This document shows, piece by piece, positions 2,957 to 32,807 of a DNA stretch of 36,382 bases. Below the pieces are notes generated by a model. It made no database searches and was not told where the DNA came from. It saw only the letters and a program-made list of their open reading frames with translations. The position numbers were made by a program, and so were the translations under genes. The first letter of the stretch is position 1. Each line of letters starts with the position of its first letter. Origin of the DNA: a virus (Duplodnaviria; Caudoviricetes). Location of the stretch: the IMG/VR virus record IMGVR_UViG_3300043391_000280, positions 1-36,382 of that record; one strand, 5' to 3'.

Positions 2957-3166
2957 ATGAAATGCACCGACGAAGCCTTGCGCGCGAAGGTTGCCCGCTG
3001 GGACGCCCCGTGGACGCATTATGCCCGCCTGCACGTTGAACTGCACCGCCTGCAAGGCACGGCCCCCACAAGCCCCGCCTGGTCGTATGCGACAGGGTTT
3101 GGTGCAACCGTGCTGGCGTGTGTGCTGATCCCGTTTGTTGTTACCGCGATAAGGGCATTTTTCTAA
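2957..3166 (+). CDS. small membrane protein, 69 aa
   Basis: C-terminal hydrophobic helix; operon packing. Confidence 0.6.
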   Translation: MKCTDEALRAKVARWDAPWTHYARLHVELHRLQGTAPTSPAWSYATGFGATVLACVLIPFVVTAIRAFF

Positions 3167-12712: not shown

Positions 12713-15168
12713 TGTTCTTCCTTGGAAGCATTGATAGCAGCGATGAAACGCTTAACGAGAGGCGCTTCCTCTTGAGGCTTGGCCTTGCTCAATTGCAGAA
12801 GGATGTTGCGAGCGGCGCGGCTTTCCATGACGCGGGCAAGGCCACCGATAGCGCCCGCAGCTGCAACCGTAGCCGCCACAGTTGTCCCGCCGGTAGCAGC
12901 CCCGCCAAGCAAGCCGCCAACCATACCAGTGAGGCCGCTAAGGCCAGCAATCGCCACGCCCTGCTGCCCGGTGTTAGTCACCACACCAGCTTCACCCGCA
13001 CGGCGCGTAAGCTTGAGCGCCTTGACAAGGCCCCCGATACGCTGCGCCTCTTCCGGCGAAAACAGTACGCCGATAGCGTTGCCCTGCTTTTTGACAGCGG
13101 TGATGAACTTTTCAGGGCTGATCACCTCCATATCGCCGCCAATTTCTCGGAACACCTTATCCATGACAGCCGCGCGAGCATTGGCGCGGCCTTCAGGTGT
13201 AAGGGCACGATAAAGCGCCGCAACGTCGCTGCGCTTCTGGCTAAACAACAGGTTGTTAACTGCTTCCGGCGTTGCCTCGCCATTGCGAAGAACGGACTTC
13301 AGCGCCTGCTTGTCCAAGTCGCCCGCCAATTCCGAAAGACGGCGATTGGCAATCATCCACTTGTTCGCCTCGCGCGAGCCGCCATTGGCGCGAATGAAAG
13401 CGCCCATATCCTCGCGGAGCGGGTTATAGATGCGGTTCATGCTCTTTTGCGCTTCACCGCTTACCGCTGCCAATTCGGGAGACTTGAACTCTTCCCCGAT
13501 CTGCTTGCGAAGGACTTCAATATCCTTAAGGCTCTTGCCCTGAATATCGTTCTTCCAGCGCCGAAGAATTGAAATTGCGGGCGCAAAGCCTTTCGGGCTG
13601 ATACGCGAAAGCCGCGCAAGCTCGTCATCAATCGCGGCATTCGTGGCAGCGACCGGAACCTCGCCCGCGCTATTGACCGCTGCGATAGCCTGCTTTTTCA
13701 TATCGGCGTACTTGGTCAATTCGCCGCTGCGCTTAGTCGAGACACTGCGCCAAACCTTATCAGGTAAGCCTTCAGCGCCAGCGCCATAGCCCGTTAGAAC
13801 ATCCTTGACCGCTGCAACGCGCGCGTCCTGCTGCGTTGCGCGAAGCCCGCCCGTGCCCGCCAGAGGAATGCGCTCGCCAACCTGCTGCAGGTTCTTGCCC
13901 ATGAACGTCTGCGGCGGCGCAACGTCCGAAGCCATAACCGGGATGCCAGCGCCTTCAGCCGCTGCAACAGCCGCCGGAGCCGCTACGCGCGGTGCCTTCA
14001 TGGCTTGCGCTACACCAGCGCCCTTTGCGCCTGCAATGCCCCCGGCAAGCCCTGCGGCAATCTGTGCCACCGTGCCGCCGCCCTGCTCACGGGCAAACTC
14101 TGCACCCGCGCCAGCACCAGCACCGCCCGCAACCTGCTGGATAGGCTGCGCAGCCAAACTAGCCGCTGCCTGCCCTGCCATGCCGGGAAGAACGCGAGAA
14201 GCCATGCCAGCAAGGCCAGCGCCAGTCATTGCGCCGGTTGCGCCCTGAATGATGGCATTGCCCATTGGATCGGTGTTTTCAGGCAGGCCCAGCGCCTCGC
14301 GTGTGGCGCGCCCGAGATTGGTAGAAAAGTTTGTGCCAGCCAGCGCATTGATCGTGGCATTCAGCGGATTGCCGATAATGCCCAGAACATTGCCAGCGCC
14401 TTCAGCCATTGAGCCAAGGCCCTGCCCGATGCCTTCCATCGTCGTATTTGACTGCGGAAGTTCTGCGGTCGTTTGCCCCTTGGTAAAGGTCTTTCCGCCG
14501 TAGGTAAACGTATTGCCTTCAGCCTGCGCCTGCGTTTGCGCAATCTCTTGCGTGATCTGGCTCGGAACTTTGCCGTCAACCATTCCGCCAATCAGCATTT
14601 CAAGCAGCGAAAGCTTTTCCTTGATGGCAATATCGCTATCAGATGCCTGCGGAATGTAGGCCATAAAGACCATCATTTCCTTTTCGCTGTCGCCTTCTTT
14701 AGCGGTCTGTGCGACAAGCGGGCGAATGAGCGGGAGCATCGTCTGCGCTGCCACATTAAAGCGCTCATTTGTTGGCAGTGCGCTGAAATATTCAGTCAAT
14801 CCGCCAAGTCGTTCAAGCGGCTGGCCTTCAATATCCTGCTGGAACAAATCAGCCGTGCGCCCCATGATGGCGCGGATCGTATCGGCGCGCTTTTTAGATG
14901 ACGCTTCCTTGGAAGCAATTTCGATTTCAGTTGCGCTCTTTCCTTCACCGCCGCGACGAGCCGATGCTTGTGCTGCAATCACTTCAGGATCAGCAGGGCC
15001 ACCCGGAATAGGCGCAAGTCCGCCACCTGCCTGCTCAAAACCACTAGGCGGCTCTTTCGGCTTTTCAGGCGCGGGCGGAACATAGATAGCGCTGCCAGAC
15101 GTAGGCGCGGCCTGCGCCGGGTCTGCTACCACCGGGCTATCTGCCCACCAATCTTTAGTCTGTGCCAT
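12709..15168 (-). CDS. large DNA ejection/transfer protein (P22 gp16-like position)
   Basis: 819 aa, Ala/Gly-rich helical with hydrophobic segments; third gene of the ejection cluster. Confidence 0.72.
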   Translation of the reverse strand: MAQTKDWWADSPVVADPAQAAPTSGSAIYVPPAPEKPKEPPSGFEQAGGGLAPIPGGPADPEVIAAQASARRGGEGKSATEIEIASKEASSKKRADTIRAIMGRTADLFQQDIEGQPLERLGGLTEYFSALPTNERFNVAAQTMLPLIRPLVAQTAKEGDSEKEMMVFMAYIPQASDSDIAIKEKLSLLEMLIGGMVDGKVPSQITQEIAQTQAQAEGNTFTYGGKTFTKGQTTAELPQSNTTMEGIGQGLGSMAEGAGNVLGIIGNPLNATINALAGTNFSTNLGRATREALGLPENTDPMGNAIIQGATGAMTGAGLAGMASRVLPGMAGQAAASLAAQPIQQVAGGAGAGAGAEFAREQGGGTVAQIAAGLAGGIAGAKGAGVAQAMKAPRVAAPAAVAAAEGAGIPVMASDVAPPQTFMGKNLQQVGERIPLAGTGGLRATQQDARVAAVKDVLTGYGAGAEGLPDKVWRSVSTKRSGELTKYADMKKQAIAAVNSAGEVPVAATNAAIDDELARLSRISPKGFAPAISILRRWKNDIQGKSLKDIEVLRKQIGEEFKSPELAAVSGEAQKSMNRIYNPLREDMGAFIRANGGSREANKWMIANRRLSELAGDLDKQALKSVLRNGEATPEAVNNLLFSQKRSDVAALYRALTPEGRANARAAVMDKVFREIGGDMEVISPEKFITAVKKQGNAIGVLFSPEEAQRIGGLVKALKLTRRAGEAGVVTNTGQQGVAIAGLSGLTGMVGGLLGGAATGGTTVAATVAAAGAIGGLARVMESRAARNILLQLSKAKPQEEAPLVKRFIAAINASKEEQ

Positions 15169-15401
15169 TAGCCCTTAGGCTCCATGTGAATATGATCGCC
15201 CTCGTTAATCACATCGAGGCCGGGATTAAGACGGCGAAGCTGTGCAGCGTAGGCGCTCATGCTCATCCCCGGAGGCGGTACGCTGTCACGCGCGCGGCCA
15301 GACAGGTGATAGCTGTTCGCCACCCCGCCTACTGCCTTGTTTCGTGCTGGACTGCGCATTGTCGAAGTCACTCGCTCACCTTCAATACCCTTAGGGGCGA
15401 A
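15168..15401 (-). CDS. peptidase M15 (DD-peptidase fold)-like domain, probably a +1 frameshift extension of the upstream ejection protein
   Basis: VTSTMRSPARNKAVGGVANSYHLSGRARD...GDHIH metal motif; no convincing own start; overlaps TTT CGC CCC TAA. Confidence 0.7.
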   Translation of the reverse strand, partial: FAPKGIEGERVTSTMRSPARNKAVGGVANSYHLSGRARDSVPPPGMSMSAYAAQLRRLNPGLDVINEGDHIHMEPKG

Positions 15402-16257
15402 ACCCGCCGGTAGCGTTGCCGCTACCACCTCCCGGTTTTGTGCGGATAACACCATTGGGATCGTAAAACGCCGCTCCCGGCGGCAATGCGTCAAACTCGG
15501 CCTTGTTCTTTGGTCTGGCAGGACCACCGCGCTGCGCATTGGCCGGAATGCTTCCGCCCATCATTTGCCGCAATTGCTCTGCCGGGCCGCTAAAGAATCC
15601 GCCATTAGGAAGCGTGACCGTTACTTTTGTCCGCTCTTCCTTGAGTGCCTGCTTGAACTCCGGCGTGCCGACCGCCTGCGGCCCCATTTCAGCCACAAGG
15701 TTCTTAATCAAAGCCGTGTCAAGCTTCATGTCTTGGCTGGCATACATCGTCTTGTAGCGCTCGGGATCAAGCGTGAAGATCGTGTTTGCCAGCGCAACCT
15801 TGGCTTCCTCCGGACTGCGCTGCATTAGCTCAAGGCCAAACTGTAGCTCCTTGGCGTACTGCTCTTGCCCCGGCGTGTTCTTGGCTGCGGCCAGAAGCCC
15901 TTCGGCAATCTTCTGCGCCGAACCCGTATCTCCACGTTCAAGCGCTGAATAGACTTGCGTCGAGTAATTCAGGCGAGTCTGCTTGATCGCGTCATTGATC
16001 GGCTCGTATGCCTTCTTAATGGCGTCCGCCTGCTCGGGAAACTGTAGCATGAACTCGGACATAGTTTCTGGCGAGCGGTCAGTCTTAAGCCGCTGTACAA
16101 ACTGCGCATATTGCTGCTTACGCTGCTCTTGCGCAACCTGCTTTTGCATGGCCTGCTCTTGTGCCAAACGCTGCTGCCGTGCCGCCTGAAACGACTGCAT
16201 AAACGCCTGCCCCGGATCGGGCATAGCTTGCAGGAAGGGAAGGGGATTGATTGCCAT
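15391..16257 (-). CDS. DNA ejection protein (P22 gp20-like position)
   Basis: Gln/Ala-rich helical; C-terminal EFDALPPGAAFYDPNG module. Confidence 0.72.
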   Translation of the reverse strand: MAINPLPFLQAMPDPGQAFMQSFQAARQQRLAQEQAMQKQVAQEQRKQQYAQFVQRLKTDRSPETMSEFMLQFPEQADAIKKAYEPINDAIKQTRLNYSTQVYSALERGDTGSAQKIAEGLLAAAKNTPGQEQYAKELQFGLELMQRSPEEAKVALANTIFTLDPERYKTMYASQDMKLDTALIKNLVAEMGPQAVGTPEFKQALKEERTKVTVTLPNGGFFSGPAEQLRQMMGGSIPANAQRGGPARPKNKAEFDALPPGAAFYDPNGVIRTKPGGGSGNATGGFRP

Positions 16258-17207
16258 TAGAACGTGACCTGCTTGCCGGAAAGGTCAAAAGTGCCACTGC
16301 CATAGCCCGTTATAAGACCGGGCATCGGGGGCAACCCAACACCGATGGGACTGCCTTGCAGACTTGCCAGCGCGCTATTGGAATTGATAAGCTGCCCGTT
16401 AAGCAAGGGCGGGCCACCGCTTCCACCCAAAGCCCCGCCAAGGATGTTCCCAAGGCTCGCAAGTCCCCCGCCAAGCGCAGCACTGGAGCCAAGCGCGCCA
16501 TAGCCTCGCGCCTGTCCAGTGTCCTGCAATAGCGCGCCGACATTTCGGCCAGTTTCCATGCCAGCAGTACCAACGCCTGCCGCCGCATTCTGGCCCAGCC
16601 TTGAGATGCCGCCTAGTGTCTCAAGCTGCTGCTGGATTTGCTGGTTAAGCAATGCGGGGCGAAACTGCGCCAATGCCCCCTGCACGTTTCCGCCACGCAG
16701 CCCGCCGGTTGCGCTCGCGTTCTGGAGGATACCCTCCTCACCCTGCCGCGCGAGAGCCTGAAACATCGGGCTTTGCTCAAACTGGCTGATAGCCTGGCGC
16801 TGCGCCTGCGCCCCGCCGGTCTGGAACTTAGCTAGATCGGCGCGCGGGTCGTTGCGCTGCTGCCACTGCTGCGCGAACGTCGCCAAGTCCTGCATACCGC
16901 CGCCGTAGGGATTGATGCGCTGCGCGTTAAACGCCTGCATGAGCGCCGGATTAGACTGCGCGTAGGCTTGCCAGTTGGTCTGCTGCGGTGCTGCCCCTGC
17001 CAGCGCGAGAAGTTGCGAGAATGCCCCCGTGCCGCCTTGTGCGTAAGGCGCGAGAAGCTGCTGCACCCGATCAAACTGGCGGCGCTGCTCCTCAATGGCC
17101 TGCGCATTGCTCTCGGCTTGCGCATTCGCTGCGGACTTCGCGCCGCCGGAAGCAATCAATCCCCCGCCGATTGTTGCCGCAGCGGCAATAAGTGTGCCTA
17201 CAGCCAT
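16257..17207 (-). CDS. DNA ejection/pilot protein (P22 gp7-like)
   Basis: Gly/Ala N-terminus, EQRRQFD...LAPYAQGG, NASATGGLRGGN signature. Confidence 0.82.
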   Translation of the reverse strand: MAVGTLIAAAATIGGGLIASGGAKSAANAQAESNAQAIEEQRRQFDRVQQLLAPYAQGGTGAFSQLLALAGAAPQQTNWQAYAQSNPALMQAFNAQRINPYGGGMQDLATFAQQWQQRNDPRADLAKFQTGGAQAQRQAISQFEQSPMFQALARQGEEGILQNASATGGLRGGNVQGALAQFRPALLNQQIQQQLETLGGISRLGQNAAAGVGTAGMETGRNVGALLQDTGQARGYGALGSSAALGGGLASLGNILGGALGGSGGPPLLNGQLINSNSALASLQGSPIGVGLPPMPGLITGYGSGTFDLSGKQVTF

Positions 17208-17659
17208 TAGTGCAACCTCTTGATAAACATATGCTCAGAAGCCCGATAGCCTCTGCGCTCGTAAACACGGCCCATCCTGTCACCATTCAACCGGGCGAGG
17301 GACTTCATCTGCCAAGACCCGCAACCAGCCGCAGCCGCAGCCTCCTCGAGCGCTGTCAAAAGGCGCATACCCGTCATAGGAGGCGCATCCGGCGAGACGT
17401 ACCAGAAAAGCTCCTCGCCCGACTTATGGGCATGATTGAAGTAAACCGGAGAGACTACGCCGGACGCGATGCCGACAATCTCGCCACATTCCGCAACCAG
17501 GCAGATGAAAACGCCCGATTCCATCAAAGCAGCAAGGGACGCAGCGCAATCGGCTTCGCTATAATCAAACACATCCGACCAGTCAGCACGCGCGTGAAAT
17601 TCCCGCCCGATCTTGGCGATGGCGGGAATATCCTCAATCGTTGCGGCTCTAATCTGCAT
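17207..17659 (-). CDS. GNAT-family acetyltransferase
   Basis: IRAATIEDIPAI...ELFWYVSP...GMRLL...YERRGY; usual position before ejection genes. Confidence 0.82.
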   Translation of the reverse strand: MQIRAATIEDIPAIAKIGREFHARADWSDVFDYSEADCAASLAALMESGVFICLVAECGEIVGIASGVVSPVYFNHAHKSGEELFWYVSPDAPPMTGMRLLTALEEAAAAAGCGSWQMKSLARLNGDRMGRVYERRGYRASEHMFIKRLH

Positions 17660-31200: not shown

Positions 31201-31543
31201 CAATCACCCGGCGAGTGATTAGGTTAACTGCAATGTCATCGCCATCCTTGCCGGTATGCTCGTTGCGGACGGTTTCCTTCCAGCCCATCTGCGTCTTGGC
31301 ATAGAAGATGGCTGCGGTCATGTTGCCGTTAAGCGCGGCCTTAACGATGGCACCGCCAACCTTAGCCTTGGCTTCCGCAGCGCCAGCGTCCAAGTCCTCG
31401 CGGCACCGTTCCGCCAAGGTGTCAACGCACTTACCGATCAGCGTAGCGATCTGCTCCTGGGTGATGCCGAGACCAGCATACATGCGAATGCGCTTGCGCT
31501 CTTCCTCGGTGGGATTCCAAGGCTGTGGCCCGCGCTTACCCAC
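31184..31543 (-). CDS. terS: terminase small subunit
   Basis: GTG start; GITQEQIATLIG HTH, AAIFYAKTQMGWKE, EHTGKDG; directly upstream of terL. Confidence 0.82.
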   Translation of the reverse strand: MGKRGPQPWNPTEEERKRIRMYAGLGITQEQIATLIGKCVDTLAERCREDLDAGAAEAKAKVGGAIVKAALNGNMTAAIFYAKTQMGWKETVRNEHTGKDGDDIAVNLITRRVIDAPEG

Positions 31544-32807
31544 CGACCAGTTCCCGCTCGGCCATCTGCGCGAAGGTCTTGCCGGTCTCTGCGTGCGTTG
31601 CCTCTTGCCCGGTGAAATCCTGCCAGCGCTTGATGGTGACATCGACATAGGCCGGGTTCAGTTCGATCGCGTGAATGGAGCGGCCGGTCATTTCCCCGGC
31701 AATGATGGTGGTGCCTGAGCCTGAAAACGGCTCATAGACCGCCTGGCCGGGGCTGGAATTGTTCTCGATCGGGCGCTTCATGCACTCAACCGGCTTCTGC
31801 GTGCTGTGGCCGGTTTCGTTCTCGTTCTTCTTGGGCTTGGGAATGTGCCAGATCGTAGTCTGCTTCCGGTCGCCGGCCCAGTGGCCCTTTGCGCCCTTTT
31901 TGACGGCGTACCAGCAAGACTCATGTTCCCAGTGGTAGTCGCCGCGCGAGAGCACGAACTGGCCCTTGTCCCAGATGATCTGGGAACGCACATGAAAGTC
32001 GCAGGCAGCCAAGCTTTCGCCAACAACACACGCAAATAGTCCGGCGTGCCAGACATAAGCCACATCGCCGGGGAACAGCGCCCAAGCCTCAGCCCAATCG
32101 GCGCGGTCGTCGTTCTCAACCTTCCCAATGGCTCGGCCATTGGAGGCCAAGCCATCCGACCGCATCGCCTTGTTCCGCCAGTCTGCATCATACTCCACCC
32201 CATAAGGCGGATCAGTCACCATCAAATGCGGCGTCACCCCGTTCAGGCACTTCGCCACGCAATCCGCGTCGGTGCTATCCCCGCACACGATCCGGTGCTT
32301 GCCCAGCAACCACACATCACCCAGCACGCTCACCGGGTCGGTGGGCACCTCGGGAATGTCGTCGGGATCGGTCAGGCCCTCGGTCTTGTCCGCAAGCAGC
32401 GCCGCAAGTTCGTCATCGCTGAACCCAAGCAGCGCCAGGTCGAACCCGTCAGCGCCAAGCCCCTCAATCTCGCTGGACAGCAAATCCATGTCCCAGCCAG
32501 CGTTAAGCGCCAGCTTGTTGTCGGCGATAACATAGGCGCGCTTCTGAGCGTCTGTCAGGCCGTTCAGCGGTATCGTCGGCACTTCGGTAAGGCCAAGCTT
32601 ACGAGCGGCCTGTAAGCGCCCGTGTCCGGCAATGATGCCATTACCGCCATCTGTCAGGATCGGGTTAGTGAATCCAAACTCGCGGATGGACGCTGCGATC
32701 TGCGCAACCTGTGCGTCGGAATGAGTGCGGCTGTTGCGTGCAAAAGGAATGAGCGCCGCAACTTCACGGATCTCGACTTTTATATTCCCGATAGTTTTAT
32801 CCGCCAT
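31536..32807 (-). CDS. ParB-N domain fused N4/N6 DNA methyltransferase
   Basis: NSRTHSDAQ...IIAGHGR...IADNKL; TDPPY, HSTQKP, EPFSGSGTT. Confidence 0.93.
   Translation of the reverse strand: MADKTIGNIKVEIREVAALIPFARNSRTHSDAQVAQIAASIREFGFTNPILTDGGNGIIAGHGRLQAARKLGLTEVPTIPLNGLTDAQKRAYVIADNKLALNAGWDMDLLSSEIEGLGADGFDLALLGFSDDELAALLADKTEGLTDPDDIPEVPTDPVSVLGDVWLLGKHRIVCGDSTDADCVAKCLNGVTPHLMVTDPPYGVEYDADWRNKAMRSDGLASNGRAIGKVENDDRADWAEAWALFPGDVAYVWHAGLFACVVGESLAACDFHVRSQIIWDKGQFVLSRGDYHWEHESCWYAVKKGAKGHWAGDRKQTTIWHIPKPKKNENETGHSTQKPVECMKRPIENNSSPGQAVYEPFSGSGTTIIAGEMTGRSIHAIELNPAYVDVTIKRWQDFTGQEATHAETGKTFAQMAERELVGG

Follow-up and report, generated by a model that had tools for sequence, protein, structure and literature searches.

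Bacterial ribosomes are prone to slip forward by one base at UUU_Ynn, and no nearby stop codon is needed (Atkins 2016, PMC5009743). Shine-Dalgarno (SD) sequences that stimulate shifting lie 3 nt from the site for +1 and 9-14 nt for -1 shifts, and a hairpin 4 nt 5' of the site promoted +1 shifts in synthetic constructs (Atkins 2016, PMC5009743). The promotion of +1 shifting by a 5' hairpin has been demonstrated on 70S ribosomes (Huang 2018, PMC6321510). Here we describe a 34-base signal, hereafter the cassette, in which GGAGG, a small hairpin and UUU-C follow one another at the 3' end of a phage gene, ORF A. The gene lies on the minus strand of the IMG/VR virus record IMGVR_UViG_3300043391_000280 (Duplodnaviria; Caudoviricetes), whose 36,382 bases are referred to as the window. 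Judged from comparative sequence analysis, ribosomal +1 shifting at the TTT_C of ORF A very probably gives rise to two forms of an ejection protein, one of 288 aa and one of 362 aa that carries a predicted peptidase.

Bacterial UUU_Y shifting is a better precedent for this site than influenza PA-X, with which the sequence-only reading of the window had compared it. Yersinia YopN-TyeA has in common with the cassette the tetranucleotide, the (here proposed) re-pairing of tRNA-Phe and the dispensability of a stop codon. The accessible part of the source mentions no SD-hairpin stimulator in that system, whereas the cassette is conserved and portable (PMC5009743). The PA-X motif, UCC_UUU_CGU, offers the same slip from UUU to UUC on eukaryotic ribosomes. 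However, among the 122 distinct cassettes pooled in this work, CGN follows the site in 45 and UCC precedes it in none, which rules out membership in the UCC_UUU_CGN type and leaves the UUU_Y slip site of the earlier proposal standing. In prfB (RF2), too, an internal SD precedes a +1 slip in the P site, and TTT is directly followed by a stop codon in 15 of the 122 cassettes. Yet prfB is autoregulatory and uses CUU_UGA with a 3-nt spacing and no hairpin, while the cassette uses TTT, mostly with a sense codon next, and a spacing of 22-29 nt with the hairpin between. These differences set it outside the prfB type; the internal SD of the sequence-only reading is conserved, but not at prfB spacing.

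The stimulator has partial counterparts as well. Known 5' hairpin stimulators, such as the SARS attenuator, also place a hairpin 4-5 nt upstream of the site, but those in the accessible part of the source are synthetic constructs in which hairpin and SD were tried as alternatives; in the cassette both are natural and adjacent (Huang 2018, PMC6321510). In T4 genes 38 and 25, an SD 22-27 nt away is brought close by a hairpin, which in gene 38 cuts the spacing from 22 nt to 5. These sites serve initiation at AUG, whereas the cassette presents UUU in an open frame during elongation (PMC3014915). Frameshifts in phage virion proteins (T3/T7 gene 10, A2, and Listeria A118, A500 and PSA, with Ig-like domains) give two forms, the domain being added by +1, -1 or in frame (PMC5009743). 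Such extension is therefore already known. A literature search brought up neither such a frameshift nor its distinguishing features: the layout of the stimulator, an ejection protein as target, a catalytic cargo that can be swapped (muralytic domains of three types behind one common RNA signal) and the changes of direction. The bioRxiv supplements and most subscription papers, among them the one on the Pam1 structure, were outside the reach of this search. The accessible parts of the PhiGT1 paper (PMC10386132) and of the Pam1-5 paper (PMC9382816), the latter never using the word 'frameshift', do not describe one either.

The cassette and the +1 frame of ORF A

ORF A (16257-15391, zero frame, 288 aa) ends with GGA GGT GGT AGC GGC AAC GCT ACC GGC GGG TTT CGC CCC TAA. 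The SD-like GGAGG at 15432-15428 (GGAGGT, 15432-15427) reads GGA GG in the zero frame. It is followed by a 7-bp hairpin with a GCAA loop (15426-15409; arms 15426-15420 and 15415-15409) that folds at -13.3 kcal/mol and persists in a 66-nt fold; a U-G pair (15427-15408) could extend it to 8 bp. A spacer (15408-15403) leads to the predicted shift site TTT_C (15402-15399), and the zero-frame TAA stands behind CCC at 15393-15391. All these features lie where the sequence-only reading had placed them, and the cassette with an M15 domain in the +1 frame is confirmed as a real observation. GGAGG followed by TTTY at 22 or 25 nt occurs twice in the whole window, and only the site at the end of ORF A has the hairpin. 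Just one of 200 synonymous recodings of this site folds as well as the native sequence. Rfam covariance models gave no match to the cassette at E<=5. Among four sequencing runs compared, a single public run (X1) spans the site, and the RNA run among the four does not cover it; the contig assembled from X1 is identical there, but X1 could be the source sample itself.

The +1 frame runs from TTC at 15401 to TAA at 15170-15168, 77 codons including Phe, so that a shift at TTT would yield 286 + 76 = 362 aa, the length that had been predicted. It encodes an M15 (LAS-type) zinc peptidase domain (15401-15168) whose match to Pfam Peptidase_M15_3 (E 4.5e-7) exceeds the curated cut-off. Its candidate catalytic and zinc-binding residues, Arg16, His32-x6-Asp39 and His70-x-His72, are invariant across 25 sequences. 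The domain is modelled with a pLDDT of 96, and its closest folds are the zinc DD-peptidase 1LBU and ChiX (E 0.054, probability 0.99-1.00; none at E<=0.001). The H-x6-D and H-x-H motifs, the conserved Arg and the LAS fold are thus all present, although the fold matches are weak by E-value, and the M15-like domain recognized from the sequence alone is upheld. Membership in this family and exchange with SLT domains predict that it cleaves peptidoglycan. Two relatives (L152:2529-3071 and L327) have a 181-aa +1 frame with an extra domain of about 100 aa ahead of M15.

Recurrence of the cassette and selection on its RNA

A query with the M15 domain recovered 54 viral loci. At 24 of the 26 inspected closely, a frame of 150-503 codons ends just past GGAGG, hairpin and TTTY, with the domain in +1; the other two comprise a longer +1 frame and a -1 case. 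Further loci came from SLT and M15 alignments (best 80 of 328 and best 80 of 505). The resulting 213 protein-anchored loci were sorted by frame alone, with one partial match omitted and near-duplicates kept. The domain is in +1 at 116, in -1 at 6, in frame at 66 and otherwise placed at 14, and 11 are too near a contig end. All 116 loci with the domain in +1 to the long ORF have a zero-frame TTTY with GGAG or GGGGG 18-36 nt upstream, a signal found at only 5 of 1,495 other long ORF ends (7 of 1,497 before two truncated true cassettes were removed). In-frame homologs had been named as grounds for refutation; they exist (66 of 213), but they support a fused product rather than refute it. At one locus (L274:1016), the +1 cassette is intact and the zero frame is open for only 65 codons upstream, which points to either a disrupted ORF A or an error in assembly.

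A DNA pattern without any requirement for pairing, frame or domain was matched 58 times in viral sequences. A hairpin of 7-8 bp forms in 52 of these matches, and 50 of the 52 have a complete +1 frame of 76-134 aa. Scanning 33 such peptides identified 15 SLT domains and 10 M15 domains and nothing useful in 8, of which 3 match virion lysozyme-like PHROGs (phrog_873, phrog_2276 and phrog_7182), a third domain type. With a second DNA pattern, the cassette was present in all six matches. Six matches to the first pattern, all of one family (L081, L098, L100, L102, L112 and L114), have a weak hairpin and a +1 frame that stops immediately, and are probably due to chance. These belong to Gln-rich genes of 644-843 codons that end with the same GGSNATGGF peptide.

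Pooling gave the 122 distinct cassettes. The scan required the features and allowed one mismatch in GGAGG, so the tallies are conditional on it. Their cargo is M15 in 65, SLT in 53 and the third lysozyme-like type in 4 (four reassigned by eye), and close ORF A pairs bear different domains (63% identity, M15 versus SLT). GGAGG is present in 120, and the site is TTTC in 107 and TTTT in 15. GGAGG lies 25 nt from TTT in 98 and 22 nt in 17. Once the hairpin is folded, 4-6 nt remain unpaired between SD and TTT in 117, though the raw distance varies (22, 25, 28), and the 3' spacer is 4-5 nt, again in 117. GGAGG is out of the zero frame in 4; in the 118 in-frame cases its first codon is GGA in 117, compared with 283 of 2,659 Gly codons in gene bodies, a bias partly built into the scan. 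The zero-frame stop lies 1-11 codons past TTT. This variation, together with the 15 cases of TTT directly before the stop, makes TTT the sole common site. The alignment test suggested by the sequence-only reading (conserved GGAGG, zero-frame TTT-pyrimidine, +1-frame muralytic domain) is thus borne out.

The hairpin bears marks of RNA-level selection. Across 32 aligned cassettes, 94.5% of cells are paired, as against 20-64% for slid controls, and seven of eight pairs have compensatory changes; the covariation sought earlier is therefore present. Native sequences fold at -13.4 kcal/mol and synonymously recoded ones at -6.1, with 104 of 118 cassettes at or below the 5% level. Recoding, covariation and constant unpaired length agree in indicating that the stimulator is selected as RNA.

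The cassette also occurs outside uncultured viruses. In the cultured cyanophage Pam1, it lies at the end of ORF14 with TTT_TCG as the shift site. The +1 frame (L355:11173-11515) begins with FRTGSK and has 103 aa, of which only the last 49 are annotated, as the hypothetical protein Pam1_15. This is a standing annotation gap. ORF14, which mass spectrometry detected in virions, is listed as homologous to the P22 translocase (probability 0.88; Table S2, PMC9382816). Queries of cultured phages with M15, two SLT sequences and cassette DNA returned no cassette carrier among the matches listed (one listing giving the best 30 of 381), and the regions examined in Jess A, GB2A, VSN-002, PfAn1 and two spring phages lack it. 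In Sphingopyxis phage VSN-002, a homologous domain (48% identity) is in frame on the translocase (gp20-like) gene. In a genome scan, 3 of 37 pattern matches carry the cassette, namely Pelagerythrobacter marinus H32 and two metagenome-assembled contigs; the other 34 are without it and were set aside as chance. Among 401 genomes of the order of P. marinus, 4 of 24 M15 matches have it. The system can already be tested, since it is available in a cultured phage and in prophages of named bacteria.

Other layouts exist. Seven distinct loci (L008 at 2975-3004, L239, L243, L245, L260, L261 and L320) place M15 in the -1 frame behind GGAGG-18 nt-C_CCT_TTC, with a stop two codons later. Here the SD is able to pair with the slippery site, and the inner hairpin is weak (-3 to -6 kcal/mol), which fits reports that a 5' hairpin promotes +1 and dampens -1 shifting (PMC6321510). 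Only one of the seven folds clearly better than shuffles on the 3' side, giving no general sign of a 3' stimulator in this class. On a tree of 83 columns with many unresolved forks, six -1 loci cluster together inside a set of +1 sequences close to that of the window, and L320 stands apart. Seven in-frame loci (L074, L214, L255/L256, L279, L280, L299 and L269) keep the signal, and a shift there would meet a stop after 2-11 codons and shorten the protein. The five in-frame M15 rows on the tree need four changes, a number not distinguishable from shuffles. Most -1 and in-frame variants are single contigs, in which an assembly error is possible. If they are real, all three layouts lead to the same pair of products and provide ready-made natural comparisons.

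Mechanism and rival explanations

In the mechanism that we propose, UUU_C would cause a fraction of ribosomes to slip forward by one base. While peptidyl-tRNA-Phe occupies UUU in the P site, the hairpin would fold again directly at the trailing edge of the ribosome. The adjacent SD would keep the 16S rRNA at an effective distance of 4-6 nt to the P-site codon, and tRNA-Phe would re-pair from UUU to UUC. Both protein forms would be incorporated into the multi-copy conduit for ejection, and a small number of long copies there may cut peptidoglycan as the DNA enters. We are less confident of this joint action of SD and hairpin behind the ribosome than of the +1 shift itself. A broader reading, somewhat less than evenly probable in our estimate, takes SD and hairpin as one folded 5' stimulator: a structured ribosome-binding site like that of T4 gene 38, reused on elongating ribosomes. 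It would be the first case in bacteria of a natural frameshift that depends on a hairpin upstream as its driver. The cassette would then be portable and tunable, serving three unrelated muralytic domains, turned to -1 (C_CCU_UUC) at least twice and flipped in polarity several times, with two ejection-protein forms always kept. With its 34 nt, the signal lends itself to studying, in a natural setting, the way in which +1 shifting is driven by RNA structure and SD pairing at the rear of the ribosome. It also points to a means by which short-tailed phages may control how many cell-wall-cutting domains a multi-copy conduit receives.

Several points weigh against the proposal. ORF A as a query found a single relative among viral contigs (L001, 73% identity), and this relative has neither cassette nor domain, which means that the extension is dispensable. 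In the accessible part of the published Pam1 virion mass spectrometry, no mark stands against ORF15, which corresponds to the last 49 aa of the +1 frame (PMC9382816). This counts against an abundant long form, which in Pam1 virions is scarce, missed or absent; that half of the +1 frame falls outside the annotation softens the point. The minority form in virions named by the sequence-only reading stays a prediction. The covariation alignment covers 32 of 122 cassettes, most of them from a pattern that fixes the loop, and kinship among the sequences inflates the shuffle control. The SD stimulators of known +1 shifts act from 3 nt away, so that a role for the distant SD is a guess, and peptidase activity is a prediction.

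The hairpin might act on transcription instead. In the Roseiflexus IS630 element, a hairpin with a GCAA cap next to T5C5 forms the signal, and one C is lost (PMC5009743); a nascent hairpin by the RNA:DNA hybrid could similarly make RNA polymerase skip one base in ORF A, where the hairpin ends about 9 nt ahead of the C in TTTC. We consider this very improbable. A run of at least six identical T or C is found at none of the 122 sites, so an IS630-type T5C5 tract is lacking. Moreover, the spacer sequence is variable, a polymerase would not need TTT in the zero frame (116 of 116), and GGAGG is left unexplained. The geometry is also that of T4 gene 38, 22 nt reduced to 5 (PMC3014915), and a hairpin-bridged ribosome-binding site of the gene 38/25 kind might serve a separate small gene. 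Such a gene could start at the loop ACG or ATG, at UUC, or at an ATG at 15539 (123-aa ORF), as the +1 frame of the window is open for 53 codons upstream. A loop ATG is in the +1 frame at 16 of 121 loci, some start codon has an SD-like 4-mer at 42, and only 6 lack every ATG, GTG and TTG. However, relatives share no start-codon position for this frame, the loop codon varies (ACG 24, CCG 24 and ATG 12 of 88 protein-anchored cassettes), and 39 of the 121 loci are free of ATG before the catalytic residue. In the window, none of the eight ATG, GTG or TTG codons preceding the catalytic Arg has an SD-like 4-mer, and the earlier view that the M15 ORF has no convincing start of its own holds. UUU and UUC are not known to serve as start codons. 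A separate gene would also fail to account for why the first T is invariant and why in-frame and -1 variants exist, and the phage already has a separate endolysin gene (10131-9613). We give this explanation very little credence.

Two further possibilities concern the site itself. Pro+stop +1 sites occur in Listeria phages and SPP1, and the TTT CGC CCC TAA of the window could shift two codons later, at the shifty stop CCC_UAA, giving ...GGFRPK rather than ...GGFAPK. CCC precedes the stop in 22 of 122 cassettes but is missing there in 100, relatives with the stop eight codons off retain FAPK in the +1 frame, and it is TTT to which the hairpin keeps a fixed distance. It is thus most unlikely that CCC_UAA replaces TTT_C, although it may be a minor second route. 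A sequencing error or a decayed in-frame fusion would be in keeping with the commonness of in-frame forms (66 of 213 loci) and with the site being covered by no independent run. Yet the same break and signal recur in 122 distinct sequences with three domain types, in a cultured phage and in bacterial genomes, and the catalytic residues are invariant. Error or decay is hardly credible in this light, and the one-base error that the sequence-only reading had listed as a refutation is excluded. Ribosomal +1 shifting at TTT_C remains the preferred explanation.

Gene neighbourhood of ORF A

Pfam and PHROG matches show that the minus strand of the window encodes P22-like proteins for terminase, portal, coat, head closure and ejection. 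ORF A follows a 316-aa gp7-like ejection gene (17207-16257; Pfam P22_gp7, E 4e-8; phrog_598, DNA ejection, E 8e-34) and precedes an 819-aa gp16-like ejection gene (15168-12709; phrog_770, DNA transfer protein, E 3e-57), and so occupies the gp20 position. ORF A itself has no Pfam or PHROG match, and BLAST detects no similarity to Pam1 ORF14. One of 25 relatives (L005) matches phrog_2534 weakly (E 5e-4). The gp20-like identity proposed from the sequence alone is accordingly retained as probable from gene order and from the annotation of relatives (the cassette-bearing Pam1 gene being a P22 translocase), but not from any direct match. Among cassette loci with enough flank, a gp7-like gene lies upstream in 47 of 102 and a gp16-like gene downstream in 70 of 100.

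The gp16-like ATG overlaps the stop of the +1 frame (TAATG, 15170-15166), not that of ORF A, and such an overlap recurs in 77 of 122 cassettes. Shifted ribosomes would terminate at the start codon of gp16 and might contribute to its translation, making a coupling of gp16 output to the shift possible. A GNAT acetyltransferase gene (17207-17659) stands just before gp7 in the window, as one does ahead of the ejection genes of Pam1 and PfAn1. The window also encodes two DNA methyltransferases (554-1495 and 31536-32807), one of the C5 type and one a ParB-fused N6/N4 type.

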